From assembly GCA_023231165.1 (NCBI GenBank), contig JALNVY010000001.1:1-55254 (forward strand): a stretch of DNA of 55,254 bases, given 5' to 3'. The stretch comes from Syntrophales bacterium. GTDB taxonomy: Bacteria; Desulfobacterota; Syntrophia; Syntrophales; UBA8958. Every line of letters begins with the position of its first letter. Position 1 is the first letter of the stretch. Shown piece by piece: positions 14,690 to 52,872 of this stretch. The notes beneath the pieces were generated by a model. That model did not search any database and was not told where the DNA came from. It saw only the letters and a program-made list of their open reading frames with translations. A program made the translations under genes and the position numbers.

Positions 14690-14998
14690 ATATTACCCTG
14701 ATCAGACAGGCGAAGGTTTTTCCCGCCAACCCCCACACCAACTGGTGTAAGCTTCCTCACTTGGATGAATCAAAAACAGAACCGTCCCCGTTATGAATGC
14801 GTAAGGCACTTCGCACTGTAAACTTTCCTTCCCAAGATTTTTCCATTTTTACCGTAATGATGAGGGCCGGCAAACCGGATCTTGATTCTAAAACAATCAT
14901 CCATTTCATATAGATAAACTTTATTGGTCCCATTTTGTGCGGCTTTGGTATGAATCCTGCTCATGGGCGGTTGACAAACCTGAAAAGGAGAGGATCTT

Positions 14999-15949
14999 AT
15001 GCCAATATCAAATAAATCCGTCGCTGTTGTTTTTCCGGGCCAGGGCGCTCAGCGTCCGGGGATGGGTAAGGATTTTTACGAGCAACTGCAAGTATGCAGG
15101 GAGACTTATGAGGAGGCCTCCGACGCCCTGGGTTGGGATGTCGGAGAGATGTGTTTCGGAGCGGACGAGCGGCTTAATCAAACCGAATTTACCCAGCCTT
15201 GCCTTTTGACGACCGAAATCGCCATGTTCCGCGGCCTGGACGCCCTGTATGATTTGTCGCCCCTTCATTACGGCGGTCATAGTCTCGGTGAATTTACGGC
15301 CCTCGTAGCAGCGGGCGTCATGCCTCTATGTGATGCCGTGCAGGTAGTCCATACCAGAGGCCGCCTGATGCAGGAGGCTGTCCCCGCCGGTCTGGGCGGC
15401 ATGGCGGCGGTGATCGCCGCTGATCTTGATGTGGAGGAATTAGAGGGGGCACTATCGGATCTGCCCGTAGATATCGCCAATGTAAATTCTTCCCGGCAGA
15501 TCGTCATTAGCGGCCATGCGAGCGCCCTGCCGGAGGCGGCGGTGAGGATCACCGATGTCATCGAGGAGGATGCGGACATGCGCTTTGTCCCCCTCAATGT
15601 CAGCGCCCCTTTTCACAGCCGTTTCATGCGCCCCGTCGAGCGGGAATTCTCCGACCTCCTGCGCGCCTTGGGCGATGATGTAGATGCCCAAAAGGCCATG
15701 GCGGTAACCTCAAATTACACTGGCAAATTCCATACCCGCTATCGGGAGGACCTGTTGTGCTACCTCACATATCAGTTGGGGAGCAAGGTCCGCTGGTGGG
15801 AGAATATGGACGCTATCGCCGCCGAGGCCGATACGATCTATGAAATCGGCCCGGGACGGCCCCTGCGGGATTTTTTCAAGACCATCGGTGTAAACTGCCT
15901 CTCCGTGACTACCCTGTCTTCGGCGATGCGCATTTTTGGGAGTAACTGA
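14999..15949 (+). CDS. fabD: malonyl-CoA:ACP transacylase (FabD family)
   Basis: Motifs are FPGQGAQRPGMG, the GHSLGE active-site Ser, TRGRLMQ and SAPFHS. RBS is AAGGAGAGG. Confidence 0.85.
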   Translation: MPISNKSVAVVFPGQGAQRPGMGKDFYEQLQVCRETYEEASDALGWDVGEMCFGADERLNQTEFTQPCLLTTEIAMFRGLDALYDLSPLHYGGHSLGEFTALVAAGVMPLCDAVQVVHTRGRLMQEAVPAGLGGMAAVIAADLDVEELEGALSDLPVDIANVNSSRQIVISGHASALPEAAVRITDVIEEDADMRFVPLNVSAPFHSRFMRPVEREFSDLLRALGDDVDAQKAMAVTSNYTGKFHTRYREDLLCYLTYQLGSKVRWWENMDAIAAEADTIYEIGPGRPLRDFFKTIGVNCLSVTTLSSAMRIFGSN

Positions 15950-15952
15950 AAG

Positions 15953-17152
15953 ATGGAGTTCAATCTATCCGATCATCAACGCATGTATTTGGAGACGGTC
16001 CAGCGCTTCGTTAAAACGGAGATCCTCCCCCATATCCTGGAGCTGGACGGGAAACATGCCTTTCCCTTTGAGATTATTCGCAAGGCCTGGGAAACGGGAA
16101 TCCTGAATCTGAGTATCCCCGGTGATATTAAAGGATATGAAATGGACGCCGTGTCCTCCGCCCTGATTATCGAAGAGCTGTCTTACGGCGATTCGGGGAT
16201 TGCCACCTCGGCCATGTGCAATGACCTGGCTAACGCCGCCATCGCTCAGCATGGGGCCGGTTCGCAGCAGGAAGCCTTTCTGAGGCCCTTTGTCGATAAT
16301 CCCCTCCTCGCTTCCTTCTGCCTGACCGAGCCGGGGGCCGGTTCCGACAACAGTGCCATGACGACGTTCATGAGCCGCCGTGAAGACGGAACCTATCTTC
16401 TCAACGGGGCCAAGTGCTTCATTACCAATGCCTCCTACGCTTCCCAGTTTACCGTTTTCTGCAAGGTGGGGAAGCCGACGGGCAATTTCATGGCCTGCGT
16501 CATCGTCCCCGTCGCGGCGCCATCCCCGAAAGAACTGGCCTCAGGGTTTGGGCAAGGGAGAGAGATTACCCTGTCTATAGGCGGGAGCATCGCCGTTGGC
16601 AAACCGGAGGACAAACTGGGGCAACGGTTGTCCAATACAGCCGCCGTGACCTTTGAAAATGTCGTTATCACCCCCGAACAGATCATCGGCGACCGGCGCC
16701 TAGGTTTTCGGTACGTCATCGACGTTCTCGACTATGCCCGGCCGATGGTGGCGGCTATCGGCGTCGGTCTGGCCCGGCGGGCCCTGGATGTGACCCTTAA
16801 TTATACCCGGGAGCGCAAACAGTTCGGCCAGCGGATCTGCGACCTTCCCGTGGCCCGGGATACCCTGACGGCCATGTGGAAAAAGGTGGAACTGGCGAAG
16901 CTGGCCCTGATGAAGTCTGCCTGCGCCCTTGAGGAGAAGGCGGAAGACCGGGGGCTTTATGCGTCCCTGGCCAAGAATACCGCCGCCGAAGCGGCCCTCT
17001 TCTGTGCCAATGAGGGGCTCCATCTCCACGGCGGCTACGGGTTCATGACGGAATACGAAATCTCGAAACTCGTTCGGGACGCCCATATCATCGATATCTA
17101 TGAAGGGGTCCGGGAGGTCCAGAACATGATTATCGGCCGGGAGATTTGCTGA
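15953..17152 (+). CDS. acyl-CoA (or acyl-ACP) dehydrogenase family flavoprotein
   Basis: 399 aa with an ACAD fold (CLTEPGAGSD, GAKCFITN). The C-terminal catalytic Glu context is IYEGVREVQ. The gene starts 3 nt after the fabD stop. Confidence 0.8.
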   Translation: MEFNLSDHQRMYLETVQRFVKTEILPHILELDGKHAFPFEIIRKAWETGILNLSIPGDIKGYEMDAVSSALIIEELSYGDSGIATSAMCNDLANAAIAQHGAGSQQEAFLRPFVDNPLLASFCLTEPGAGSDNSAMTTFMSRREDGTYLLNGAKCFITNASYASQFTVFCKVGKPTGNFMACVIVPVAAPSPKELASGFGQGREITLSIGGSIAVGKPEDKLGQRLSNTAAVTFENVVITPEQIIGDRRLGFRYVIDVLDYARPMVAAIGVGLARRALDVTLNYTRERKQFGQRICDLPVARDTLTAMWKKVELAKLALMKSACALEEKAEDRGLYASLAKNTAAEAALFCANEGLHLHGGYGFMTEYEISKLVRDAHIIDIYEGVREVQNMIIGREIC

Positions 17153-17154
17153 TT

Positions 17155-18162
17155 ATGCTGTATCTGCACGGGTTGGGACACTTTCACCCGGAGAATGTCA
17201 TTACCAATAAGTTCCTGGAAGATCTCGACATCGGGACCAGCAACGACTGGGTCCTGGAACGGGTGGGAATTCGGGAGCGCCGGACCTCTCTTCCCCTTGC
17301 TTACATCCGGGAAACGAAGAATAACGACACTCGAACTGCTTATGAAGCCAGTATTTACACAAATGCCCAGACCGGGGCGGCGGCGGCAAGGCATGCCCTT
17401 GCCCAGGCGGGTATTGCTCCGGAGGACATCGGCCTGGTGATTTCCGGCAGTTCGGCCCCGGACCATGTCACCCCGTCCGAGGCCGCCACAGTGGCGGCGG
17501 AACTCGAAATCGAGGCGCCGTGTTTTGACATCAACGCCGCCTGCGCCACTTTCGGGGTCCAGTTGTCCTTTTTGAGCAAAATGAGGCCGGAGAGTCTGCC
17601 TCCCTATGTCCTGGTCGTCAACCCGGAAAATCTGACCCGTTGTATCGACTATTCGGATCGCAATACGGCGGTCCTCTTCGGAGACGGCAGTGCGGCCGCC
17701 GTGGTTTCGGCAACGATACCTTCACGGTTACGCCTGCTGAAGAGTGATTACGCATCGAAACCGGCGTCATGGCAGAAGGCGATTATTCCCCGGACCGGTT
17801 ATTTCCAGCAGGACGGAAATGCGGTGCAGGGTTTTGCCATCCGCAAAATGACGGAGGCGGTCCGGACGTTTCAGGAGACCTATGAGGGAAGGAAGGATGG
17901 AGAAAAAGATATAAATGGCCGGCGCCTTCTCTTTGTCGGTCACCAGGCAAACCTGAGTGTTTTAAACACGGTTTGTGAGCGGTCGGCCATTCCCGATGAC
18001 TGTCACTGGTGCAACGTGACCATGTTCGGCAATACGGGCTGTTCCGGAGCCCCGGCGGTTGTAAGTCAGCGCTGGCAGGATCTTGAGCCGGGTGACTGCC
18101 TGATCATGGCCCTGGTCGGGGCGGGGCTGACGTGGTCAACGCTAATGTGGCAGATGTCCTGA
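17155..18162 (+). CDS. 3-oxoacyl-ACP synthase III (KAS III / FabH family)
   Basis: The Cys-His-Asn triad lies in the contexts INAACATFG, VGHQAN and FGNTGCSG. The ATG is at 17155 (a TTG at 17146 is also possible). Confidence 0.8.
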   Translation: MLYLHGLGHFHPENVITNKFLEDLDIGTSNDWVLERVGIRERRTSLPLAYIRETKNNDTRTAYEASIYTNAQTGAAAARHALAQAGIAPEDIGLVISGSSAPDHVTPSEAATVAAELEIEAPCFDINAACATFGVQLSFLSKMRPESLPPYVLVVNPENLTRCIDYSDRNTAVLFGDGSAAAVVSATIPSRLRLLKSDYASKPASWQKAIIPRTGYFQQDGNAVQGFAIRKMTEAVRTFQETYEGRKDGEKDINGRRLLFVGHQANLSVLNTVCERSAIPDDCHWCNVTMFGNTGCSGAPAVVSQRWQDLEPGDCLIMALVGAGLTWSTLMWQMS

Positions 18163-18173
18163 GGTAAATTTTG

Positions 18174-18749
18174 ATGAAATATGAAGAGTTCAGAAACCAG
18201 AAAAGTTTTAATCTTACCGATCTGATCGCCTTTTCCTATGGCCGGCTGGTGGAAGATCCTCCGGATGGTTTTGACGCCCGTCTGCCGGCGCCTCCTTTTC
18301 TCATGATCGATCGCATCCTCTCCATGGAGGCAGATGGTCGGAGAGGGAAAATCGTCGCAGAGCAGGATATCCATCTGGATGCTTGGTATTTCCAATGTCA
18401 CATGCCCGGAGATCCTGTCCAGCCTGGCTGTCTCGGAGTGGACGCCATCTGGCAGCTTCAGGGATTTTATGGCGTCTGGCGCGGTGGCCTGGGGGCAGGG
18501 CGTGCCCTGGGATGTGATGGGGTGACTTTTACAGGACAGGTCCGCCCCTATCACCGCGTCGTCCGCTACGAGATCGACGTCCGCCGTTTTTCTTCCCTGG
18601 CGGAATCGGGGGCCAGCATCATTATCGGCGACGGGACCATATCCGTGGATGGGGAGTGTATCGCCGAGGTTCATCAGGCCCGCACCGGCCTTTTTCGAGG
18701 CATCGTCTATGGTGATTATCCGTGGCCTCCGAAAAACAGTGAACGGTAA
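18174..18749 (+). CDS. fabA: FabA-type 3-hydroxyacyl-ACP dehydratase/isomerase
   Basis: [12 protein letters not shown] and [29 protein letters not shown] closely parallel the E. coli FabA active-site block [24 protein letters not shown]. Confidence 0.8.
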   Translation: [191 protein letters not shown]

Positions 18750-18882: not shown

Positions 18883-19611
18883 ATGGAAGACAGAAAAGTA
18901 GCCGTGGTCACCGGCGCGGCCACTGGAATCGGCGCCGCCTGCGCCCGGGCGCTTGCGGCGGAAGGTTTTATGGTCGGGATTCACTACCGTCAAAGCGAAG
19001 AAGCTGCCCAGGCCCTGTTGGCGGAACTGGGTCAGGGCTTCCTCCTCAAGGGGGACCTGACCAGAACCGAGGATATTAACGCCATAGTGGAGCAGATCAG
19101 GGCCATCGCCGGCCAGGTGGATGTCCTCGTTCACAATGCGGGATTCTCCGTGAATATGGATATTAATTCTATGCGTCTGGAGCAGTTCGATGAGCAGCGC
19201 CTCCTGACGAGGGGGGTCTGGTACCTGACGAAGCGGGTTTTACGGCAATTCATGCTCCGCCGGAATCAGGGACGGATCATCAGCATCAGCAGTGTCGTCG
19301 GCCATACGGGCAACGGCGGACAGATCCCCTATACTATGGAGAAGGCTGCCCTCGATGCCTTTACGAAATCTCTGAGCAAGGAATTGGAAGGACGAAACAT
19401 CCTGGTAAACGCCGTGGCCCCCGGATTCATCGCCACGGAGATGACGGCGGTTCTTCCGGAAGAAGTTCAACAGCGGATTCTGGTCAATATTCCCCTGCAA
19501 CGCATGGGGAGGCCGGAAGAGGTGGCGGAGGTCGTGGCCTTCCTCGCCGTCGGTGCGACGTATATTACCGGATCGGTGATTCATGTCAACGGAGGTCTCT
19601 ATGGCGGCTGA
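18883..19611 (+). CDS. fabG: 3-oxoacyl-ACP reductase (SDR, FabG family)
   Basis: Motifs are VVTGAATGIGAA (Rossmann), NAG, and the S...YxxxK context (ISSVVGHTGNGGQIPYTMEKAA). Confidence 0.85.
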   Translation: MEDRKVAVVTGAATGIGAACARALAAEGFMVGIHYRQSEEAAQALLAELGQGFLLKGDLTRTEDINAIVEQIRAIAGQVDVLVHNAGFSVNMDINSMRLEQFDEQRLLTRGVWYLTKRVLRQFMLRRNQGRIISISSVVGHTGNGGQIPYTMEKAALDAFTKSLSKELEGRNILVNAVAPGFIATEMTAVLPEEVQQRILVNIPLQRMGRPEEVAEVVAFLAVGATYITGSVIHVNGGLYGG

Positions 19612-20077
19612 TGCAACCCTGCGCGCCTTGATTTTGAAAGCCGTTCCCCAACAGCCTCCGTTTCGCTTTATCGAGGAAATTCTGGAAATGGACGGGGAGT
19701 GCATCACCGGTGCCTATCGCTTCCGCCGGGATGAATATTTTTATCGCGGTCACTTTCCGGACCGGCCCGTTACCCCGGGCGTGATCCTCATCGAGGCCAT
19801 GGCCCAGACGGGGGTGGTTGCCCACGGTCTGTACCTGTCCATGACTAAGCTGGGGGTGTCCGTCGAAGCGGTGAAGAAGATAACAACCCTGTTTACCTAC
19901 GCCGACGAGGTGGAATTTTTAGGGATCGTCGCCCCGGGGGAGCGGATCATTTTCCGGGGACGGAAAGTCTATTTCCGCCAGGGAAGCCTGAAGGCGTCCG
20001 TCACCGCGGAGCGGGAAGACGGAGAAGTCGTCTGCCGGGGAACCCTGGCCGGTAAAGGGGTGCTTACGGGGCTCTAA
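19601..20077 (+). CDS. FabZ/ApeI-like hot-dog 3-hydroxyacyl-ACP dehydratase
   Basis: The ATG at 19601 overlaps the fabG stop (ATGGCGGCTGA). Motifs are PQQPPFRFIEEI and YRGHFPDRPVTPGVILIEAMAQTG. Confidence 0.75.
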   Translation: MAADATLRALILKAVPQQPPFRFIEEILEMDGECITGAYRFRRDEYFYRGHFPDRPVTPGVILIEAMAQTGVVAHGLYLSMTKLGVSVEAVKKITTLFTYADEVEFLGIVAPGERIIFRGRKVYFRQGSLKASVTAEREDGEVVCRGTLAGKGVLTGL

Positions 20078-20116: not shown

Positions 20117-21397
20117 ATGGAAAAAAGAATTGTCATTACGGGCATGGGTGTCGCCGCCCCTAACGCCCACGGACTGGAGGCTTTTACCGAAGCCTTAAGA
20201 GCAGGCCGTTCCGGTATCCGCCACATCCCGGAGTTGGAGAAGATGAACTTTGGCTGTCAGGTCGGAGGGATTCCTGAAAATTTTGAAGCCGTGCGCAAAA
20301 GCTATTTCGATCACGAAAAGCTCATGTCCATAAATGACAACATCGGTTACGCCTCTGTATCGGCCATCGACGCCTGGCGGGATGCAGGATTTGAGGTTCC
20401 TGAGGGCGATGACGATCGGGTACATTGGGATACAGGCGTCATTCTGGGATCTGGAATCGGGGGGATGGACACCATTGCCCGAAGCGTCGTCCCCATGGTG
20501 AACGCGGGCAAAGTTCGACGCATGGGGAGCCGGATCGTAGAACAGGTTATGAACAGCGGTACGAGCGCCCGCATTGCCGGCCTGCTGGCTTTAGGGAATC
20601 AGGTAACGTCCAATTCTTCTGCCTGCTCAACGGGCAATGAAGCAATCATCGATGCCATGTGGAGAATCCGCATGGGGTTGGCGAAACGGATGTTGGCAGG
20701 TGGTTCCGAGGGAGCTTCCCCCTATACCTGGTCCGGATTTGACGCCATGCGGGTGATCTGCCGGAAATTCAATGACCAGCCGGAGCGGGCCTCCCGCCCT
20801 ATGAGCGCCACTGCCAGTGGCTTCGTCCCCGGAGCAGGGGGTGCTGTCCTAGTCCTGGAGGATTTGGAGACGGCAAGGCAGCGGGGGGCCAGGATCTACG
20901 CCGAGGTTGCCGGAGGGGCTGTGAATTGCGGCGGCCAGCGGATGGGAGGGTCCATGACCGCCCCCAATCCCGCGGGGGTGCGACGCTGCATCCAGGACGC
21001 CATCGCCGATGCCGGAATATCACCCATTGATATCCAGGCTATCAATGGCCATTTGACGGCCACCTACGCCGATCCCATGGAGGTGAAAAACTGGTTCGAG
21101 ACCCTGGGGAGGCCGCTCGCTGATTTCCCCTTCATCAACTCGACGAAATCGATGATCGGTCACTGCCTGGGGGCCGCCGGGGCTATTGAATCGGTTGCCG
21201 TCGTTCTTCAGCTTCACCGGGGATTTATTCATCCCTCCGTGAACAGTGAAGATGTCCACCCGGACATTACGGCCTTTGCAGCGAAGATTCCCCAGCAGGC
21301 GATAGACATGCCCGACCTGCGCGTTATAGCCAAGGCCGGTTTCGGTTTCGGCGATGTGAACAGTTGTCTTATCTTCAAGAAATGGGAAGAAAAATGA
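20117..21397 (+). CDS. beta-ketoacyl-ACP synthase I/II family (elongating KS)
   Basis: 426 aa. The Cys-His-His triad lies in the contexts SNSSACSTG, INGHLTAT and MIGHCLGAAG. Confidence 0.85.
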   Translation: MEKRIVITGMGVAAPNAHGLEAFTEALRAGRSGIRHIPELEKMNFGCQVGGIPENFEAVRKSYFDHEKLMSINDNIGYASVSAIDAWRDAGFEVPEGDDDRVHWDTGVILGSGIGGMDTIARSVVPMVNAGKVRRMGSRIVEQVMNSGTSARIAGLLALGNQVTSNSSACSTGNEAIIDAMWRIRMGLAKRMLAGGSEGASPYTWSGFDAMRVICRKFNDQPERASRPMSATASGFVPGAGGAVLVLEDLETARQRGARIYAEVAGGAVNCGGQRMGGSMTAPNPAGVRRCIQDAIADAGISPIDIQAINGHLTATYADPMEVKNWFETLGRPLADFPFINSTKSMIGHCLGAAGAIESVAVVLQLHRGFIHPSVNSEDVHPDITAFAAKIPQQAIDMPDLRVIAKAGFGFGDVNSCLIFKKWEEK

Positions 21398-21589: not shown

Positions 21590-21835
21590 ATGGAAGAAAA
21601 TAAGATTTTTACGGAGATGATCGAGATCCTGCGGCTGTATGCGAAGGATAAAACCCACCTGGACCAGGCGACGATGGCGACCCACATCCTCGATGACCTC
21701 AAGGTGAATTCGGCCCGCCTCGTGGATGTCATCATCAAGTGCGAGGATGTCTTCGGGATTACGATCGAGGACGATGAGGCTGACAAGATCCGCACGATCG
21801 GCAACGCCGTGGAGTTGATCAAGAAGAAACTATGA
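21590..21835 (+). CDS. acyl carrier protein
   Basis: 81 aa with RBS AAGGAG. The helix-II attachment Ser lies in LDDLKVNSARLVDV, followed by an acidic helix III (ITIEDDEADKI). Confidence 0.8.
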   Translation: MEENKIFTEMIEILRLYAKDKTHLDQATMATHILDDLKVNSARLVDVIIKCEDVFGITIEDDEADKIRTIGNAVELIKKKL

Positions 21836-22671
21836 CCTCTGCGACGGCTTTTCTTCTTCGCCTTCAGTCTGCCTTGGGTTCCCTGAGCTCCTGGCTGCTG
21901 GCGCCCCTGTATTTTCTATTCTTGAGATGGCGGGGCTACGAGATCAGAGACCTGGATAAGATCCGCCGCCAGTGGGCCGGGCTAATGGAGGGTCACAAGG
22001 GGCCGTGGCTGATCTGCGGCAATCATCTTACCCTGATTGACTCCCTGATCATGATCTATGCCCTCATGTCTCTGGGAAGGCACATCACGGAATACAGCCG
22101 GCTCCCATGGAATCTTCCGGAACGCGCCAATTTCCAGCGGAATATTTTCCTGGTGATCCTGTGTTATCTATCGAAATGCATTCCCGTCAGCCGGGGAGGC
22201 GATCGGGAGGAGATGCAGGGGACCCTTGCCAAATGCAACTATCTCTTGAAACATCAGCAGATCCTCATGGTCTTTCCCGAAGGGAGACGATCCCGGTCGG
22301 GGCGTGTCGATACGGAGAATTTCTCTTACGGCGTGGGTCGTTTCCTCCAGGATCATCCGGATTGCCGGGTGCTTTGCGTTTATCTCCGGGGGGACGCCCA
22401 AACATCGTACGGAAATATGCCCAGCCGCGGCGATACATTCACGATAACCTTGGATGCCTTCCTGCCCTGCACGCCCGCCGGGCAGGGATTAAGGGCGCAA
22501 CGGGACCTGGCGGGGCAGATTGTTCACCGCCTGGCCAAAATGGAGGAAGAATACTTTGCCCAGCATCGGCAACGATATTGTAGATTTGACCAGTCCGGAA
22601 AGCATCGGGAAAAGCCGGGACCGGCGCTTCATTGCCCGCGTCTTCACTCCGGAAGAACAGGAACGGATTGA
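21832..22671 (+). CDS. lysophospholipid (PlsC-family) acyltransferase
   Basis: ATGA overlap with the ACP stop. HX4D motif GNHLTLIDS and FPEGRRSRSG motif are present. The last ~38 codons overlap the PPTase ORF and look low-complexity. Confidence 0.75.
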   Translation: MTSATAFLLRLQSALGSLSSWLLAPLYFLFLRWRGYEIRDLDKIRRQWAGLMEGHKGPWLICGNHLTLIDSLIMIYALMSLGRHITEYSRLPWNLPERANFQRNIFLVILCYLSKCIPVSRGGDREEMQGTLAKCNYLLKHQQILMVFPEGRRSRSGRVDTENFSYGVGRFLQDHPDCRVLCVYLRGDAQTSYGNMPSRGDTFTITLDAFLPCTPAGQGLRAQRDLAGQIVHRLAKMEEEYFAQHRQRYCRFDQSGKHREKPGPALHCPRLHSGRTGTD

Positions 22672-23428
22672 TAGATCCGCGTCTCCCGATACCACTCTCT
22701 GGATGTTCTGGGCGGCAAAGGAAGCGGCTTTCAAGGCGGTGAGTAAATTGAAACCGGGACTGAGCTTTATGCACAGGGCGTATGTCGTCACGTCGCCCCT
22801 AAACGAAGATTCCCCAAGGGAAGCCACGATGACTTCCGGGAATTGCCTCTGTTTTCCGACTAGCGCCCATGCCCGGAGCGAGCGTAACGAAGCATTAAAA
22901 TCCCCACTAACCCCTCTTTGTCAAAGGGGGGATGCGGGGGATTTTAATATAAAGGAAAACATCCTTTGTTCCGGTTCCCATCGTGAATCTGATTATCGAA
23001 ACGGTCATGGAAAACCGGCGCCCATCCTTCTGAAGCAAACAAACGGCGATGCGATGTCAATTCAGGAGCGCGGTGTGGTTATGACGCCGGCTGGTCCTGT
23101 GAATGCCTTCTTCACGTTGTCACCCCGCCGCGTCCACTGTGTCGCCGCCGCGAGAAACGGTCATGGCGGCGCCCCGGTGGCTACGGCGGTCCATGTTCGG
23201 GAGGAAAGAAGGGATGGTCCGTTTGATCCGTCCGCAGCCGTACGCCGGGCGGCGATCCATCATCTGGCTTCCGTTCTGAAGGCCTCCCCTTATTATATAG
23301 ACATCCGCCGCGATAAAACGACTCATGGCTACGGGACGCCCCGCGTCTTCATCGAAGGAAGCCGGACGGATATCGACATCAGCCTGAGTCACGACGGCCA
23401 GTATATCGCCTTCGTCGTTCACTATTAG
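22556..23428 (+). CDS. 4'-phosphopantetheinyl transferase superfamily protein (with a long internal insertion)
   Basis: The TTG at 22556 has GGAGG at 22542-22546 (the ORF opens at 22520). Conserved blocks are IGNDIVDL, WAAKEAAFKA and the C-terminal DISLSHDGQYIAF. The middle ~100 aa is unconserved-looking and contains a REP-like hairpin. Confidence 0.65.
   Translation: MPSIGNDIVDLTSPESIGKSRDRRFIARVFTPEEQERIDRSASPDTTLWMFWAAKEAAFKAVSKLKPGLSFMHRAYVVTSPLNEDSPREATMTSGNCLCFPTSAHARSERNEALKSPLTPLCQRGDAGDFNIKENILCSGSHRESDYRNGHGKPAPILLKQTNGDAMSIQERGVVMTPAGPVNAFFTLSPRRVHCVAAARNGHGGAPVATAVHVREERRDGPFDPSAAVRRAAIHHLASVLKASPYYIDIRRDKTTHGYGTPRVFIEGSRTDIDISLSHDGQYIAFVVHY
22911..22940. repeat. REP-like GC hairpin (CCCCTCTTT-GTC-AAAGGGGGG ATGCGGGGG) inside the PPTase ORF
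   Basis: 9-bp stem (one G-T pair) plus a G-rich tail. It is translated in frame as PLTPLCQRGDAGDF. Confidence 0.45.
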
Positions 23429-23540: not shown

Positions 23541-23855
23541 TCACATGTCAAAGGGCTGGAGGATGCGGATTCTCATCCCCACCACGAAGGTCTTGACCGC
23601 TTCCCGGTAAATTTTCATATGCGGGGTGACCAGGTGTTCCTTCAAGGCCGGAAGATCGGACCAGCGTTCAATAATAGTCACGGCATTTTTGCTGATCGGT
23701 TCCTGGACGGGGATGTCCGTGGGCACGTCGAAAGCCGGACCGTATTCAAGGCATCCCGCTTCGGCGCGCACCTTGGGAATAAGTTTCTTGAATTCATCCA
23801 GATAATCGTCACGCCTGCCGTCGGCCAGCTCTAATGTTGCAATCACATAGATCAT
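23541..23855 (-). CDS. antibiotic-biosynthesis-monooxygenase (ABM/YgiN-like) domain protein
   Basis: 104 aa. MIYVIATLELADGRRDDYLDEFKKLIPKVRAEAGCLEY...IIERWSDLPALKEHLVTPHM fits the ABM ferredoxin-like fold pattern. Confidence 0.7.
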   Translation of the reverse strand: MIYVIATLELADGRRDDYLDEFKKLIPKVRAEAGCLEYGPAFDVPTDIPVQEPISKNAVTIIERWSDLPALKEHLVTPHMKIYREAVKTFVVGMRIRILQPFDM

Positions 23856-23904
23856 ATTTCTCCTCCTTGCTGGTCCTACTGTGACGAGGCGATTGAACCG
23901 TTCA

Positions 23905-26259
23905 CTACTGAGCGAGGTGGTAGTACCGGTTCAAATCGAACAGTCCTGCATCTACCGGTTCATCCTCATAGAATCGCTGTTGAAACCAGTCATATACATC
24001 CCAGAGCCGGTCCTCCGCCCTGTTGACGCCGTACTTGGCCAGTCGCTCATAATCTCTCGGGCTTTTCTCAAAATGGGCAAGGAGATCAAAAAAGTCGGGC
24101 AGGTCCTCTTCACGGATATCAATAAAGTAGTTTGGATAGGATCCGATGAGGCCGTGAATAAAATCCGCGCTGTCCTTTGATGGATCGAGAGCGTTCTTTT
24201 CACCGAATAAATAGGTAACATTGTTATGCCAACGATTGATCACGATGGAGATCGCAAGCTCTTTTCCATTTTTCAGGCGGATCCTCATGTAGGCGACATT
24301 TACATTGTAATCATTGAGCACTGAGAAAAATGGCGTGCCGGGTTTGGAAGCAGCGCGAAAAGCCTTGAGGTAGTCATCCTTTGTTTCGTACTTTTCCGGC
24401 CATCTTTGATAGTCAACTCCCGCCCGCTCATAGTTCACGGCATCAAAAGTGATATTTGTTACAGGTAGAATATGTTTGTTCACAATATGTTCGACGAACT
24501 CACGCTTCGGCTCGTCCGTCACGAAGGAAATTTTTGTCGGCAGGGCGGAAGAATAGTAATGAATCTTTTTGAGATCAACCCCCTTATACCACGATTGCAT
24601 GATCTCCTGTCGTTTTGACACGGGCAGAAAATCCAGGAAGTAACTTTCGCCTTCAACACGGAGCGCATCCATGTAAAGACGTAGCGCCAACTGGTGGCCG
24701 GCCGTGCCGTACACGTCAAATCCGGCAACAAGGGCATAATAGATGCGTTCAAGGAGGGGATAGTCTACAACCCACATCGTTTTCGGCAGATTTCCCAACA
24801 CCCCCTTATGGACGGATGCGTTGTCAAAATGGCGATAAACGGTAAGCAACGGCGTATCCGCGGCCCTGTTTCCCTTCCAGACGGATTCATAGCCGAGACC
24901 GGCGTAGTTATGTGATGTGTAATAGTCTTGCCGGGCTTGATAAAACTCAACGGCGGCCTTTTTATATTCATCAGTCAGCGCCTCAAAGACGCGCATGTCA
25001 CTGCCGACCTCGATCGGCATGCGCAGTTTGTCGCTGTGCAACTTCAGAAAGGCCGGATATGCCACGCTCAGATCGTGATCAGGATCCAGGAACATGACCC
25101 AGAAATGATCATTGATCACATTGAGAGCGACTTGACCTTTACAGACCGGACCGTGGATGAAGGTCATGATGATATAATGCACGTTGTCCAGCAGGAACTG
25201 GTAGCGCGAACGCGGGGGAATCTGTTCAAATGCGACAAAAGGATTGGCGCTCAGTTTCGCGTCGTACCCTACCCTATGTGGGGGCTGCAACCATTCCGGC
25301 TGGATAAAAAGCTCCTTGAAGCGATGCAGTTGGGCGGCATCAAGGTAAAATACCATATGGGTCTTATGGACGATCGTGGAGTGGATCTTTCTGAACCGAT
25401 AGTAGACCCGCTCAACACCGGGGTCATCATAGGGGCGCACGGTGGCGATCAGATCAAGGGGCTCTCCGGGCGCGGTCTTCGAGCGGACCAGTTCATAGTA
25501 TTCACGGGTCGGCGTGCCGAATTTAAGATGGGCCAGGAACAGATGCTCATAGATATAGCGCGCGGTCATGGCATGCTTGGCGTCGTCCTGGTTAAAAAAC
25601 GCTTCCCACTGTTTTATTTCAAGAGCATCGCTTGCTTTTGGTGTGGTCAGCATCGTCTGCTCTGTGGTATCAGGCCCCTTCGCGCCCTGAACCAGCCAGC
25701 CCGCAACGATATCGAATTCTTCCTGCTTGAGCGGAGGAAACCCGAAGGGCATGCCGCGGTTCGGGTGTTTTTCCAGGTACCCTCCGAGTTCATCCTGGTT
25801 TCCGGCACAGGTCAGATCGTCGGCTTCAGGCCTGTACTCCCCGACGCTTTTCGGGTTTTTCATCTTGTGGGAAAGGAGCTCGATCATGATGGAGTCGTTC
25901 GACCCGCCTGACGCTTTGCTGTCGGTAACGCTGAAAAATTCTTTCTGGCGCCACTCCTGGGTCGATTGGGCATCCGTGAAGAGGCGTGTTGGATCCATGG
26001 ATTTTAGTCGGGTGGCATTGTAAACCGCCCTTTTCGTGGCGCCGCGGTCCGCACCCTCAAAAGAGTCGAGTTTGAGCTGGCAGGGGGAATTATAGCAGGA
26101 ATGGCAAACCACACAGCGTTTGTCGAGAACTGGTTTTACTTCTTTCTGATAATCGATATGTTTCGTCGGAATCTGGAAAACCACCGGCACCGGCGCTTTC
26201 GCAGCACATGCAACAAAGAGCCCGACCATTGCCAAAACAAACGCTATCGTATGCCTCAT
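23905..26259 (-). CDS. cti: fatty acid cis/trans isomerase (heme-c)
   Basis: 784 aa with a signal peptide and possible lipobox (LFVAC). The CVVCH motif (nt 26101-26115) is followed by CYNSPCQLKLDSFEGADRGA, as in the Pseudomonas Cti N-terminus. Length matches the CTI family. Confidence 0.85.
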   Translation of the reverse strand: MRHTIAFVLAMVGLFVACAAKAPVPVVFQIPTKHIDYQKEVKPVLDKRCVVCHSCYNSPCQLKLDSFEGADRGATKRAVYNATRLKSMDPTRLFTDAQSTQEWRQKEFFSVTDSKASGGSNDSIMIELLSHKMKNPKSVGEYRPEADDLTCAGNQDELGGYLEKHPNRGMPFGFPPLKQEEFDIVAGWLVQGAKGPDTTEQTMLTTPKASDALEIKQWEAFFNQDDAKHAMTARYIYEHLFLAHLKFGTPTREYYELVRSKTAPGEPLDLIATVRPYDDPGVERVYYRFRKIHSTIVHKTHMVFYLDAAQLHRFKELFIQPEWLQPPHRVGYDAKLSANPFVAFEQIPPRSRYQFLLDNVHYIIMTFIHGPVCKGQVALNVINDHFWVMFLDPDHDLSVAYPAFLKLHSDKLRMPIEVGSDMRVFEALTDEYKKAAVEFYQARQDYYTSHNYAGLGYESVWKGNRAADTPLLTVYRHFDNASVHKGVLGNLPKTMWVVDYPLLERIYYALVAGFDVYGTAGHQLALRLYMDALRVEGESYFLDFLPVSKRQEIMQSWYKGVDLKKIHYYSSALPTKISFVTDEPKREFVEHIVNKHILPVTNITFDAVNYERAGVDYQRWPEKYETKDDYLKAFRAASKPGTPFFSVLNDYNVNVAYMRIRLKNGKELAISIVINRWHNNVTYLFGEKNALDPSKDSADFIHGLIGSYPNYFIDIREEDLPDFFDLLAHFEKSPRDYERLAKYGVNRAEDRLWDVYDWFQQRFYEDEPVDAGLFDLNRYYHLAQ

Positions 26260-45023: not shown

Positions 45024-46553
45024 ATGGAAGTCTTTACATTAGCCGTTGTCAGCCTGGCCATCGCTGTTTTTCTTTTTTTTACCAAGCGGCAGAACCGGAT
45101 ACATCTGTCGTTTGCCTGCCTGTGCCTGGCCATTTTTTTCTATAAAGGGGGCAACTTTCTTTCCATTCATTTCCACTCCGGCTTCTGGAGTATGGTGGAA
45201 ATGCTCGGTCTCCTGGCCTTCTCTCCCCTGATCATTTCCTTCGGGCGTCTGCTGCTCAGCGATCAGAGCTTCCTGTCTCTACGCCAGACCATGGCGGCGG
45301 CATTTATCAGTCTGATTCTGATTGTTTCCCTGTTCACTCCCCTGGCGGACTGGCCCTACTGGAGCATGCTGATCTATGTTTACCCCGCTTCTGTCCTGGC
45401 TTTTTGTTACGGCGCCCTGATTCTCTTCATCCGCAGCAAGCCCGCGAGTGTGGAAAGAACGAGGATGCTGTATCTTTCCATCGCTTTCGGGATGGCGGCC
45501 CTCATCAGTGCCTGCGATGTCATCAAGCTTTTCGGATATGATTTTTCTCCGCTCTACAATATTTTTATCGCAGTTCTCATGTATATGATCTTTTTGATCG
45601 TCAATCACCCTCAACTTATGGATCTGCACGAGGTGATGGCCCGTGCCTTGATCACCGGCGTACTGACCCTGTGTGCGACCCTGGTGATCTACGTCTTTAT
45701 CCGGCTCTTCGGCAGCCCCTCTTCCTCGTCTCTGACGTATATTCTGCTTGCGTCCTTTCTCATTGTCATTTCCATTGAACCGTTGAAACAGGTCCTCAAG
45801 AACATCTTCAGTTGGATCTATCCGGAGAGTAAGGAGGCCTTCAATTTCCTCTATGCCTTCAATCAAAAGCTGGAGCGGGAAAAGAGCATGCTCCTGGAAG
45901 AAATGGCCCCCGTGCTGGCCCATGAAATCCGCAACCCCCTGGGATCGATCAAGGGAGCGGCGCAGTACCTGCGCTCCGAGGTTATGACCGATGAGGACAA
46001 GCGCCTCATCGACGTAATCATCGAGGAGGTAAACCGTCTCAATAGGGTCGTCAACCAGTTCTTGAGTTATGCGAAACCCTATAGTCTCAATCTGAAGCTT
46101 CAGGATGTCAACGCCGTCATTGCCAAGGCCATATCGATCGTCAAGGCTAATGATCTGACGGAAAAGATCGTGATCGAAGAGGAGTTGCGGCCAGATCTGC
46201 CGCTGGTCAATGTGGATGCGGAACAGTTGATCCAGGTGATTCTTAATATCGCCGTCAATGCCCTGGAGGCCATGCCCGAGGGGGGTAAACTCATTTTCCG
46301 AACCCGTCGGATCGACAGCGACCAGGGTAAGGCAGTAGGTATTTCCATTCGGGATACGGGAAAAGGGATAAAAAAGGATGAGCTGCGCAACGTCTTTAAA
46401 CCCTTTTTCACGACCAGGGAGCGGGGCGTCGGCTTGGGTCTGGCCATCTGCCAGCGTATTATCAAGAGTCATGGCGGCCATATCCGGGTAAAATCCATCC
46501 CCGGACAGGGAAGTATTTTCTATATCCGCCTACAGCGGGCGGTATTATCTTAG
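45024..46553 (+). CDS. membrane sensor histidine kinase (NtrB/AtoS-like)
   Basis: About 7 N-terminal TM helices. The H-box is LAHEIRNPLGSIKGAAQYL and the ATPase N/G boxes are NIAVNALEAM, IRDTGKGI and GVGLGLAICQ. Confidence 0.85.
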   Translation: MEVFTLAVVSLAIAVFLFFTKRQNRIHLSFACLCLAIFFYKGGNFLSIHFHSGFWSMVEMLGLLAFSPLIISFGRLLLSDQSFLSLRQTMAAAFISLILIVSLFTPLADWPYWSMLIYVYPASVLAFCYGALILFIRSKPASVERTRMLYLSIAFGMAALISACDVIKLFGYDFSPLYNIFIAVLMYMIFLIVNHPQLMDLHEVMARALITGVLTLCATLVIYVFIRLFGSPSSSSLTYILLASFLIVISIEPLKQVLKNIFSWIYPESKEAFNFLYAFNQKLEREKSMLLEEMAPVLAHEIRNPLGSIKGAAQYLRSEVMTDEDKRLIDVIIEEVNRLNRVVNQFLSYAKPYSLNLKLQDVNAVIAKAISIVKANDLTEKIVIEEELRPDLPLVNVDAEQLIQVILNIAVNALEAMPEGGKLIFRTRRIDSDQGKAVGISIRDTGKGIKKDELRNVFKPFFTTRERGVGLGLAICQRIIKSHGGHIRVKSIPGQGSIFYIRLQRAVLS

Positions 46554-46563
46554 CGGGGTTTCT

Positions 46564-47937
46564 ATGAGCAAGATTCTGGTCGTGGATGATGAGATCAACA
46601 TGCAGGTGGTGCTCCGGGCCATGCTGAAAAAAGAGGGATACGAAGTTCTGACGGCCCCGGACGGACGGGAGGCCCTCAAGGTATTAGCGGCCGGAAGGGG
46701 AAACATCGATGTGGTGGTTACGGACCTCAAAATGCCAAATCTTGATGGCATGGGGCTTCTGGAACGGGTGATGAAGGATTATCCGTCTACCCCGGTGATC
46801 ATGATTACCGCCCACGGGACAGTGGCCACGGCAGTAGATGCCTTAAAAATGGGGGCCTTTGATTATGTTACCAAGCCTTTTGAACAAGATGAACTCAAAA
46901 ATGTCATCTTCAAGGCGATCAAAACGAGACGGCTAAACAATGAGGAATTCGTTGCCAGTTCCGACGACATTGACCGTTATGGCATTATCGGCGCCAGCAG
47001 TCCGATGATCGAGATATTTGAGACGATAAAGCGGGTAGCCCCGACGACGACAACAATCCTCATTTCCGGGGAAACGGGGACGGGGAAGGAACTGATTGCC
47101 AACGCCATCCATATTAACAGCCCCCGGAAGAACAATCCCCTCATCAAGATCAACTGTGCAGCAATTGCAGAAAACCTCATGGAAAGCGAGCTCTTCGGTT
47201 ATGAGCGGGGGGCCTTTACCGGCGCTGTCGTCACCAAGCCGGGACGTTTTGAGTTGGCCCACAAGGGGACTCTCTTTCTCGACGAAGTTGGAGAGCTGCC
47301 CAAAGAGATGCAGGTAAAACTGCTACGGGTCATTCAGGAACAGGCCTTTGAACGGGTCGGAGGATTGAAGACCATTAAGGTGGATGTGCGCCTCATCACG
47401 GCTACGAACAGGAACCTCTTCCAGGACGTCAAGGAAGGGCGTTTCCGTGAAGATCTCTTCTATCGCCTCAATGTTCTCCCCATCCAACTGCCGTCCCTGC
47501 GGGAAAGAAAAGACGATATTCCTACCCTGACCGCCTTTTTCATTGACCGGTTCAACAACAAGTTGTCCATGGATATCAAGGGATTGGACGAAGAGGTCAT
47601 GGATCTGTTTGTCGATTATGACTGGCCGGGCAACATCAGGGAAATGGAAAATCTCCTCGAAAGGCTCGTTCTGATGGCCAGGGGACAGACGATAACCCTT
47701 GAAGACGTCCCGGGAGAAATCAAGACGGCCGTCTATGAACAATCCCTGCTGCCACCGGAAAAACAGAAGAGCCAGTTCAAGGATTTCATCCGGTCCCAGA
47801 CGGAGGACGTTGAAAAACAGATGATCGCCCGCTGCCTAGATGAATGCGGCGGTAACGTCACCCGGGCTGCCCAGCATCTGGGCCTCAGCCGCAAGGGTCT
47901 CCAATTGAAAATGATCAAGTACAACCTGCGAAAATAA
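46564..47937 (+). CDS. sigma-54-dependent response regulator (NtrC family)
   Basis: The REC domain ([13 protein letters not shown]) is followed by an AAA+ domain with Walker A GETGTGKE, the GAFTGA loop and [17 protein letters not shown]-terminal Fis-type HTH completes the protein. Confidence 0.9.
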
Positions 47938-51621: not shown

Positions 51622-52872
51622 ATGTTTGATTATTTGCTTACAAAGGAACAATTAGCCATTCGGGACGAAGCCCGGGACCTGGTCAAGTGGGTCCCCCGCC
51701 AGATGATCCTCGATATGGACCAGGATAAGATCCGCTTTCCCAAGGAATTTCTCTCCGAGGCGGGGCGCCGGAACCTCCTCGGCTGTCGCTACCCTCGGGA
51801 ATGGGGTGGCCGGGGAATGGACTGGGTTACCACTGCGGCCATCTTGGAGGAGATTGGCACTCTGGGCTACGAGTTTGCCTGTGTTTTCGGTGTCGGCGCG
51901 GAGCTCGTCTGCGACGCCATTATCCTGCACGGGACCGACGCCCTGAAGGAAAAGTATGTCAAACCGCTCCTGCGCGGAGATATCTTTGCCGCCGAGTGCC
52001 TGACAGAGCCCAGGGGCGGGTCGGATTTCTTCGGTGCCACGACAAAGGCGGAAGACCGGGGTGATCACTTCATCCTCAACGGCCAGAAGCGCTTCATCGT
52101 GGGCGGCGAGGGGGCGGATTATTTCCTGGTTTATGCCCGGACCAATTTCGATCCCGCTGCCAAGCCCCAGGATTCGCTTACGGCCTTCATCGTTGACCGG
52201 GGACCCGGAGTGGAGACAAATTACCTCTATGCCCTCCTGGGTTGCCGGGGCGGCGGTACGGCCCGCATCGTCTTCAAGGACGCGGTTATCCCCAGAGAGA
52301 ACATCGTGGGAAAGGTCAATGGCGCCTACGCCGTCTTCAATACCATGATGATCCCCGAGCGCCTCGGGACGGCCATGATGACCATCGGCGCCGCCCGTCC
52401 TGCCATCGAGATCGCCACCAAATACACCGCCCGGCGCAAAGCCTTCGGCCAGATAATTGCCACTTTCGAGGGGGTAAGCTTCCAGATAGCCGAGGCGGTC
52501 ATGCTCCTCGATGCGGCCCGGTCCATGGCTTACACGACGGCCCGGGCGGTGGAAACGGGACAGGACATGAACCGGATCCGCCGTGCCGTCTCCGAAGCCA
52601 AAAAATTCATTACCGAATCCTGCCAGAAGGTAGTCCACAACGCCATGCAGGTTGTAGGCGGCATCGGATATACGAACGTCTTTCCCCTGGAACGGATCTA
52701 CCGTGACATCCGCCTGGCCAGCATCTGGACGGGGACGAGCGAGGTCATGGCCATGATTACAGCCCACGAATGGTACCGGGAATTCCTGGGCAAGGAGATC
52801 CACTCCCGGCCCCGGGACCACGAGGCGGACGCCGAGGAGGCCTTCGCGGAGGAAGAGAAGATTTACGAGTGA
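51622..52872 (+). CDS. acyl-CoA dehydrogenase
   Basis: 416 aa with an ACAD fold (CLTEPRGGSD, GQKRFIVGG). The catalytic Glu context is IWTGTSEVM. Confidence 0.85.
   Translation: MFDYLLTKEQLAIRDEARDLVKWVPRQMILDMDQDKIRFPKEFLSEAGRRNLLGCRYPREWGGRGMDWVTTAAILEEIGTLGYEFACVFGVGAELVCDAIILHGTDALKEKYVKPLLRGDIFAAECLTEPRGGSDFFGATTKAEDRGDHFILNGQKRFIVGGEGADYFLVYARTNFDPAAKPQDSLTAFIVDRGPGVETNYLYALLGCRGGGTARIVFKDAVIPRENIVGKVNGAYAVFNTMMIPERLGTAMMTIGAARPAIEIATKYTARRKAFGQIIATFEGVSFQIAEAVMLLDAARSMAYTTARAVETGQDMNRIRRAVSEAKKFITESCQKVVHNAMQVVGGIGYTNVFPLERIYRDIRLASIWTGTSEVMAMITAHEWYREFLGKEIHSRPRDHEADAEEAFAEEEKIYE

Follow-up and report, generated by a model that had tools for sequence, protein, structure and literature searches.

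An acyl-CoA dehydrogenase-fold flavoprotein as a candidate enoyl-ACP reductase in a Syntrophales type II fatty-acid synthase operon

The reduction of enoyl-acyl carrier protein (enoyl-ACP) in fatty-acid synthesis is the textbook example of a single reaction carried out by unrelated enzymes (FabI, FabL, FabV and FabK), and it is a drug target. In the acyl-CoA dehydrogenase (ACAD) family, FkbI, TcsD, MbtN and RedW are dehydrogenases that act on carrier-protein thioesters. As shown by Agne et al. (2022, PMC8805022), ACADs of Syntrophus aciditrophicus serve physiologically as terminal reductases of enoyl-CoA, fed by electron transfer flavoprotein (ETF), ETF:methylmenaquinone oxidoreductase and formate dehydrogenase. 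In Enterococcus faecalis, Dong & Cronan (2022, PMC9671860) describe an operon, fabI-fabN-fabO, that combines a dedicated enoyl reductase with the dehydratase/isomerase and the ketoacyl synthase of the unsaturated branch; a second enoyl-ACP reductase (ENR) is encoded elsewhere in that genome. Here we describe an ACAD-fold protein encoded within a ten-gene type II fatty-acid synthase (FAS II) operon of a Syntrophales bacterium. The operon lies in a stretch of 55,254 nucleotides, hereafter the window, which is contig 1 (JALNVY010000001.1) of a metagenome-assembled genome (MAG) of 2.65 Mb in 363 contigs, 90% complete (G000). Sequence and gene context suggest, with a probability that we put at roughly 60%, that the ACAD is the enoyl-ACP reductase (ER) of this putatively sigma-54-controlled operon.

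The gene and the two elements within it that are discussed below are as follows.

15953..17152, plus strand: ACAD-fold flavoprotein, candidate enoyl-ACP reductase of the operon (three ACAD Pfam domains, likeness to medium-chain acyl-CoA dehydrogenase, MCAD)
17102..17104, plus strand: codon of Glu384, the predicted catalytic base, equivalent to MCAD Glu376 (alignment to MCAD)
16511..16573, plus strand: clade-specific insertion in the beta-domain, residues 187-207 (comparison with MCAD and nine paralogues)

The reading frame runs from ATG to TGA and encodes 399 amino acids. It matches PF02771 (2.8e-23), PF02770 (4.3e-17) and PF00441 (1.6e-36), all above the Pfam cut-offs, and its closest solved structure is MCAD (3mdd, E 7e-68). 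The superfamily architecture of N-terminal alpha, middle beta and C-terminal alpha domains is present, as is the catalytic glutamate: Glu384, in the motif IYEGVREVQ, aligns with MCAD Glu376 and is near-invariant (at least 90%) over 52 aligned sequences. T125, S131, T158 and R288 correspond, at the sequence level, to conserved FAD-site positions, and E219 stands at the position of the ETF-docking MCAD Glu212. Judged from these alignments, the catalytic core is intact, as in a working dehydrogenase or reductase. In the substrate pocket, MCAD Gln95 and Glu99 of the floor are replaced by Ala84 and Met88, and Trp166 by Phe156; the Ala84/Met88 floor would suit longer, apolar chains. The stop codon of FabD lies 3 nt upstream of the ACAD ATG and the likely start of beta-ketoacyl-ACP synthase (KAS) III, ATG 17155, lies 2 nt past the ACAD stop; the gene is translationally coupled between the two. 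Domains, Glu384 and positions all agree with the first-pass annotation, made from the window's sequence, which had recognised an ACAD homologue with its catalytic Glu context between FabD and KAS III.

The operon encodes, in order, FabD, the ACAD, KAS III, FabA, FabG, a FabZ-like protein, KAS I/II, ACP, a PlsC-like protein and a phosphopantetheinyl transferase (PPTase). It thereby contains the malonyl transacylase, KAS III, KAS I/II, ketoreductase (KR), two dehydratases (DH), ACP, PPTase and acyltransferase. Searches with Pfam and NCBIfam models found no match to FabI, FabL, FabV or FabK among the ten proteins, in line with what the first-pass annotation had read from the open reading frames, and the sole short-chain dehydrogenase/reductase (SDR) of the operon is of the Y-x3-K FabG type. 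The operon holds the ER of a type II synthase only if the ACAD fills that step.

Related operons carry a different enzyme in the ACAD slot. Homologues of the operon KAS, 61-67% identical, occur in six genomes of other families, and in five other families of the phylum there are sister operons that are homologous gene for gene, with the surrounding genes 45-67% identical. In these operons (Desulfobacterales and other families), the slot after FabD is occupied by an SDR of 311-316 amino acids. Its best or second-best NCBIfam model is FabL (NF005975), the solved structures nearest to it include FabL and 2,4-dienoyl-CoA reductase, and the precomputed Pfam matches of its homologues include PF12241 (FabV/TER catalytic domain). 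Over its catalytic half it can be aligned gap-free with E. coli FabI, and Y156 and K163 of the Y-x6-K motif are matched. Among 401 sampled genomes of the phylum, 15 have the ACAD, eight have the slot SDR and none has both. The same sample contains no ACAD orthologue outside the order (best match 41% identical), and no slot SDR orthologue was found in Syntrophales. The KAS proteins of ACAD-type and SDR-type operons form one clade (100/100) far from housekeeping FabF, in a tree that was rooted with housekeeping FabF and whose inner branches are poorly separated; the tree thereby gives the two operon types a single common origin. Most SDR-type genomes carry a separate FabZ. The pattern reads as an in situ non-orthologous replacement at the predicted ER position, in either direction, between an ACAD and an SDR enoyl reductase, and the two proteins presumably serve the same step of the cycle.

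Within the order, the ACAD is a fixed member of the operon. A single-copy orthologue, 69-95% identical, is found in 37 of the 41 Syntrophales genomes, where the next paralogue reaches 36%; the four genomes lacking it also lack the operon-type KAS. Close homologues carry the names Syntrophus, Smithella or Syntrophales. The ACAD lies inside the operon, with gene order kept, in all 12 diverse genomes inspected and in 80 of 80 species loci. Over these 80 loci the invariant core is ACAD-FabG-FabZ-like-KAS-ACP-PlsC-PPT, that is, the ketosynthase, KR and DH steps plus one redox enzyme, the ACAD. FabA is missing from about 38 of the 80 loci and the ACAD is kept with or without it. In seven Smithella-type loci, KAS III and FabA are both absent and FabG follows directly on the ACAD. 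In loci with FabD at another place, the ACAD comes first after the sigma-54 promoter, and the operon includes no CoA ligase or transferase. Of the options offered by the first-pass annotation, the best supported is that the ACAD runs in reverse as a reductase.

Two side observations concern these loci. At L105:7449-8891 and in about 20 other Smithella-type loci, FabD and the ACAD are separated by an inserted 480-aa carboxyltransferase (PYC_OADA plus HMGL-like) that resembles the alpha subunit of oxaloacetate decarboxylase or the B subunit of pyruvate carboxylase; it may provide a transcarboxylase route to malonyl-CoA that spares ATP. The Syntrophales genomes G025, G026, G028 and G039 are without the operon and also gave no credible match to a dehydratase of the FabA/FabZ family (36 bits at best).

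In a library of 1.84 billion representatives, the ACAD clade forms one cluster at 50% identity, after which similarity drops to 47% or less. The 47% match, P0248, for which an identity of 39% was also obtained, has the signature motifs of the clade. It heads a series of ACAD, KAS III, FabA, FabG, FabZ-like, KAS, ACP and PlsC genes on a metagenome contig of 30% GC, and its partner proteins are 25-46% identical to their window counterparts. Since such distant partners follow in the same operon order, the link between the ACAD and fatty-acid synthesis is old and reaches beyond Syntrophales. The P0248 operon has a divergently oriented neighbour (L187:520-5280) encoding a fused acetyl-CoA carboxylase of 1586 aa (carboxyltransferase plus biotin carboxylase), and its proteins are all unusually long, suggesting many insertions.

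Phylogenetically, the ACAD clade is monophyletic (100/100), sits on a stem of 1.65 changes per site and branches with MCAD-type straight-chain enzymes, apart from the butyryl-CoA dehydrogenase and glutaryl-CoA dehydrogenase paralogues of the MAG. Its invariant clade-specific motifs are TSAMCNDLAN and LHLHGGYGF. The window protein shares no more than 33% identity with any paralogue of its own genome and scores under the cut-off of every NCBIfam ACAD equivalog. The long stem, the low paralogue identity and the fatty-acid synthase context in 80 of 80 loci rule out an ordinary beta-oxidation ACAD. The case that the first-pass annotation had set against its own suggestion, a protein clustering with such enzymes and not conserved with the other nine genes, is therefore not what is seen: the ACAD stands apart from them and is conserved with its operon.

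Other family assignments were rejected as well. The cyclohexane-carboxyl-CoA dehydrogenase models give 200 bits against a cut-off of 650 (NF043006) and 122 against 575 (TIGR03207). Those of known dehydrogenases of acyl-ACP or peptidyl carrier protein substrates give 37 against 700 (MbtN, NF037942), 157 against 650 (RedW, NF045652) and 162 against 500 (PigA, NF053553). For the bifurcating butyryl-CoA dehydrogenase/EtfAB type (AcrC, NF042972; structures 5OL2 and 4L1F) the score is 256 bits against 640. The 'acryloyl-CoA reductase' label that comes with AcrC as top match is not meaningful: this model ranks first or second for every short-chain ACAD paralogue tested, and the paralogues of G000 score 232-482 bits with it, mostly above the 256 of the ACAD. 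Membership among the SDR enoyl-ACP reductases (FabI, FabL, FabV) is dismissed on the ACAD fold and the lack of an SDR domain, and FabK on the lack of a PF03060 match. The window encodes a second, divergent ACAD at 51622-52872 on the plus strand, of 416 aa, 26% identical to the operon ACAD and on a long branch of the tree.

A structural peculiarity is the insertion of 21 residues just ahead of the MCAD Glu212 equivalent. Neither MCAD nor any of nine paralogues from this genome has it, whereas every ACAD orthologue does, with a first half that is variable in sequence; the distant cousin P0248 has a shorter, different one. The first-pass annotation had noticed an insertion here; the string it quoted spans residues 185-216, of which only 187-207 are truly inserted. 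The AlphaFold2 model of the ACAD (mean predicted local distance difference test score, pLDDT, 90.2; predicted template modelling score 0.92) shows the insertion as ordered, with a helix at 192-197, a strand at 203-206 and a pLDDT of 90-93 across the block. Outside the insertion the model has the standard ACAD fold, with template modelling scores of 0.87-0.89 against MCAD entries at 32-33% identity. A structure search with the model returned ordinary ACADs only and did not separate CoA-dependent from ACP-dependent enzymes. Conserved basic residues specific to the clade are K21, K60, R203, R248, R249, R275, R276, R294, R302, K310, K311 and R387. We discounted them as an ACP-docking signal: several are lost in P0248, and the net charge of the clade is more negative than that of other ACADs.

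If the ACAD is the ER, the cycle would proceed as follows. KAS, FabG and FabZ or FabA would build a trans-2-enoyl chain on the ACP of the operon. An external one-electron donor would reduce the FAD of the ACAD, the FAD would pass a hydride to C3, and Glu384 would protonate C2, yielding the saturated acyl-ACP for the next round, which is the ACAD reaction in reverse. An NAD(P)H site is lacking in ACADs, which calls for a donor such as ETF, and ETF, loaded from beta-oxidation and the menaquinol pool, is probably that donor. The MAG has four EtfA genes, all on other contigs. We infer the reaction direction, the ACP-bound rather than CoA-bound substrate and the ETF donor. That such an ETF-dependent ACAD draws high-potential beta-oxidation electrons (ETF, menaquinol) straight into fatty-acid synthesis is a tentative extension, possible though on the doubtful side.

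The wider fab gene content of these genomes bears on how much depends on the operon. Elsewhere, G000 encodes a housekeeping ACP-FabF pair beside rpmF, a second FabD and a FabH-like gene. Its DUF177-rpmF-fab locus (C24:1739-4346) is degenerate, with only the last ~64 residues of FabG remaining before ACP and FabF. The corresponding locus consists of ACP and FabF only in G024 and of FabD-FabG-ACP-FabF in G023, and plsX, fabH and fabZ are absent from it in all three genomes. Across five Syntrophales genomes, including a closed one, strong matches to the FabA/FabZ family are confined to the two in the ACAD operon. Together with the reduced rpmF locus, this makes the operon central to fatty-acid synthesis in the order.

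In a genome-wide check for other ENRs, FabI was not found in G000; three FabK-like ORFs of the nitronate monooxygenase (NMO) family are present on other contigs, scoring 240-297 bits against the TIGR03151 cut-off of 453. The FabV Pfam domain had no match in G000, in a search in which no control genome matched either. Two genomes that carry the operon, G037 (99% complete) and G040 (92%), contain neither FabI nor the slot SDR, their best SDRs being Y-x3-K FabG types; FabV is absent from both in a search with working positive controls, and no NMO/FabK-family protein is found in G036, G037 or G040. The ACAD is the only ER candidate found in G037 and G040.

As separate observations on genes of G000, at C13:1081-4152 the best-conserved FabK-like NMO gene lies directly downstream of a gene for a 558-aa acyl-CoA ligase; the NMO gene is 72% identical between G000 and G023, and several families of the order yielded no match to it. 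Another cluster, C119:510-4667, encodes a 128-aa FabZ/ApeI-like hot-dog protein, a polysaccharide deacetylase, a B12-binding radical SAM protein and a phytoene-desaturase-like flavoprotein, and recalls gene sets discussed for ladderane or aryl-polyene-type lipids.

Several observations weigh against the ACAD as ER. FabK-like NMO proteins occur in the window MAG and in most Syntrophales, so that enoyl-ACP reduction could take place in trans, and a true FabI, with 42% identity to the E. coli enzyme, is encoded in G036. FabK-like proteins are also found in SDR-type genomes; being present with both operon types, they do not explain the slot swap, and within Syntrophales their distribution is patchy. 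The absence of an ENR in G037 and G040 rests on MAGs, in a search that did not extend to reductases of the medium-chain dehydrogenase/reductase (MDR) and Old Yellow Enzyme (OYE) types. The operon and its immediate surroundings contain no etf gene. The ACAD sequence has no ACP-binding signal, and K60, R248, R249 and R387 are not kept in P0248. Finally, the KAS tree does not tell which slot occupant, ACAD or SDR, is ancestral.

An unlikely alternative is that the ACAD works forward as an acyl-ACP dehydrogenase, introducing a trans-2 bond for O2-independent unsaturated fatty-acid synthesis by FabX-like 'backtracking', or giving an unsaturated product, with an ER of FabK, FabI or unknown type encoded elsewhere. 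It has precedents in the carrier-protein dehydrogenases FkbI, TcsD, MbtN and RedW named at the outset. Another is Helicobacter pylori FabX, a flavoenzyme that is an acyl-ACP dehydrogenase/isomerase according to the excerpts of PMC8626469. FabA and a gene for a fatty-acid cis/trans isomerase (Cti) are close by, and the FabK-like genes of the MAG could supply the ER. Against this, FabA already yields the trans-2 and cis-3 intermediates, making a dehydrogenase needless, and the ACAD does not co-vary with FabA; for these two reasons the forward reaction is the less parsimonious one. It would also leave G037 and G040 without a detectable ENR, it does not account for a reductase-type SDR in the same slot of sister operons, and the MbtN, RedW and PigA models score far under their cut-offs. 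The chain left unsaturated in a polyene-like manner, which the first-pass annotation had listed among its outcomes, is unlikely given that the sister SDR-type operons encode a reductase and that the operon has the only strong FabA/FabZ dehydratases.

It is likewise improbable that the ACAD is a subunit for redox sensing or scaffolding, or that it modifies acyl chains in the manner of an oxidase or monooxygenase, and that an unrecognised reductase serves the operon. The long stem, the invariant motifs and the insertion speak for such a role, and MDR- and OYE-type enzymes lay outside the reductase search. The catalytic Glu and the FAD-site residues are conserved as in a working dehydrogenase or reductase, however, and the pattern of SDR replacement points to the ER step.

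Least probable of all is an ACAD acting on acyl-CoA, to prepare a starter unit (alicyclic ones included) for KAS III or to link beta-oxidation intermediates to the synthase: CoA esters are the default substrates of the family, the order metabolises benzoate and cyclohexane-carboxylate, the genome is rich in ACAD paralogues and the gene is coupled to KAS III in the window, but the ACAD is kept in the seven loci whose operon is devoid of KAS III, it is accompanied by neither a CoA ligase nor a transferase where it comes first behind the promoter, its ancestry is of the MCAD type with very low cyclohexane model scores, and the FabD-x-KAS III adjacency is common to SDR-type operons and so says nothing specific about the ACAD. 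The starter-unit or early-step role favoured in the first-pass annotation thus loses its ground: the ACAD persists in Smithella-type loci that lack both KAS III and FabA, which speaks equally against any role dependent on FabA as isomerase, and the position beside FabD and KAS III from which that role was argued is inherited architecture, shared with the SDR of sister operons. Its suggestion of alicyclic starters fares no better, with the cyclohexane-carboxyl-CoA dehydrogenase models far under their cut-offs and the ACAD branching with MCAD-type enzymes.

The remaining genes of the operon, its promoter and its putative regulators are listed below.

14946..14961, plus strand: sigma-54 type -24/-12 promoter, TGGTATGAATCCTGCT, beginning 53 nt upstream of the fabD ATG
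14999..15949, plus strand: FabD-like malonyl-CoA:ACP transacylase (PF00698 2.2e-27; TIGR00128 243 bits, under the cut-off of 261)
17155..18162, plus strand: KAS III, FabH-like (PF08545, PF08541; start refined to ATG 17155)
18171..18749, plus strand: FabA-type dehydratase/isomerase (NF003509 194.7 bits, cut-off 124)
18883..19611, plus strand: FabG-type 3-oxoacyl-ACP reductase, Y-x3-K (TIGR01830 236 bits; motif PYTMEK in the sequence)
19583..20077, plus strand: FabZ-like hot-dog dehydratase (PF07977 8.5e-16)
20117..21397, plus strand: operon-type KAS I/II (PF00109, PF02801)
21590..21835, plus strand: dedicated ACP (PF00550, NF002150)
21832..22671, plus strand: PlsC-type acyltransferase (PF01553 1.3e-13)
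22520..23428, plus strand: AcpS-type PPTase with a long extension (PF01648 2e-12)
45024-46553, plus strand: sensor histidine kinase (Pfam HisKA, HATPase_c)
46564-47937, plus strand: sigma-54 activator response regulator (Pfam Response_reg, Sigma54_activat, HTH_8)

The refined start of KAS III is backed by orthologues that open with MLYLHG. In 58 of 73 orthologous loci, the promoter pattern TGGNANN-N4-NTGC[AT] occurs 46-98 nt upstream of the gene that opens the operon, compared with a chance expectation that we estimate at ~0.01 matches per locus. In about 28 of 80 loci, orthologues of the kinase (43-61% identity) and the regulator (62-73%) are encoded divergently, directly upstream of the operon. 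The pair at 45024-47937 is thus likely to be the regulatory pair of the operon, displaced by ~22 kb in the window. Convergent on the end of the operon, at 23541-26259 on the minus strand, are the genes for a 784-aa haem-c Cti (PF06934, 862 bits) and a 104-aa ABM-fold protein; no Cti was found beside the operon in the 80 orthologous loci (no match at E 1e-30).

An ACAD-type ER would have consequences for both biochemistry and physiology. An ACAD-fold, flavin- and ETF-linked reductase would stand as the sixth class of enoyl-ACP reductase; it would be distinct in mechanism, differ in cofactor and electron donor, and be insensitive to drugs targeting FabI. If it depends on ETF, syntrophs would save NAD(P)H on a step that wastes ~60 kJ/mol, and they would avoid the costly reverse electron transport otherwise needed for disposing of those electrons. 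It would newly connect the redox chemistry of lipid breakdown with that of lipid synthesis, extending the 'ACADs as reductases' of Syntrophus from catabolism to biosynthesis. It would also explain lipid building in a whole order of energy-starved bacteria, where genomes without a detectable ENR, such as G037 and G040, would cease to look incomplete. A literature search, with most subscription journals outside its coverage, returned no description of an ACAD in an FAS II operon or of this cassette.

Compared with the FabL/FabI-type SDR of the sister operons, the ACAD has the same position after FabD and homologous surrounding genes. The SDR is a Rossmann-fold, NAD(P)H-dependent protein with a Y-x6-K motif, whereas the ACAD is an FAD protein of unrelated fold. 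The arrangement resembles fabI-fabN-fabO of E. faecalis in that a proposed dedicated enoyl reductase lies beside a dehydratase/isomerase and a KAS. The E. faecalis operon encodes a normal FabI and, unlike the ACAD operon, no ACP, PPTase or acyltransferase. H. pylori FabX likewise offers a flavoenzyme working on the C2-C3 bond of acyl-ACP in type II synthesis, as is proposed for the ACAD; its fold, however, is FabK-like, it contains FMN and a [4Fe-4S] cluster, and it is a dehydrogenase/isomerase, not the reductase of the cycle.

Closer in fold are MbtN, RedW and PigA, and likewise FkbI and TcsD, which share the ACAD architecture and use thioesters tethered to carrier proteins. They are dehydrogenases of secondary metabolism, unlike the operon ACAD with its FAS II context, and since the MbtN, RedW and PigA models score so far under their cut-offs, the ACAD represents an independent recruitment. 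MCAD (3MDD, 1UDY, 1T9G) and the Thermus thermophilus MCAD (1UKW) have in common with it the fold, the Glu376 and Glu212 equivalents and the FAD-site residues, and they form the closest branch of the tree. The ACAD differs from them in its 1.65 stem, its 21-residue beta-domain insertion, its altered pocket floor and its place in a biosynthetic rather than a catabolic operon. A functional parallel is the 'enoyl-CoA respiration' of S. aciditrophicus described by Agne et al. (2022, PMC8805022), in which order, enzyme family and reverse reaction are the same. There the reductive ACADs act on CoA esters in catabolism, whereas the ACAD described here stands in an ACP-based biosynthetic context, with ETF as its putative donor.

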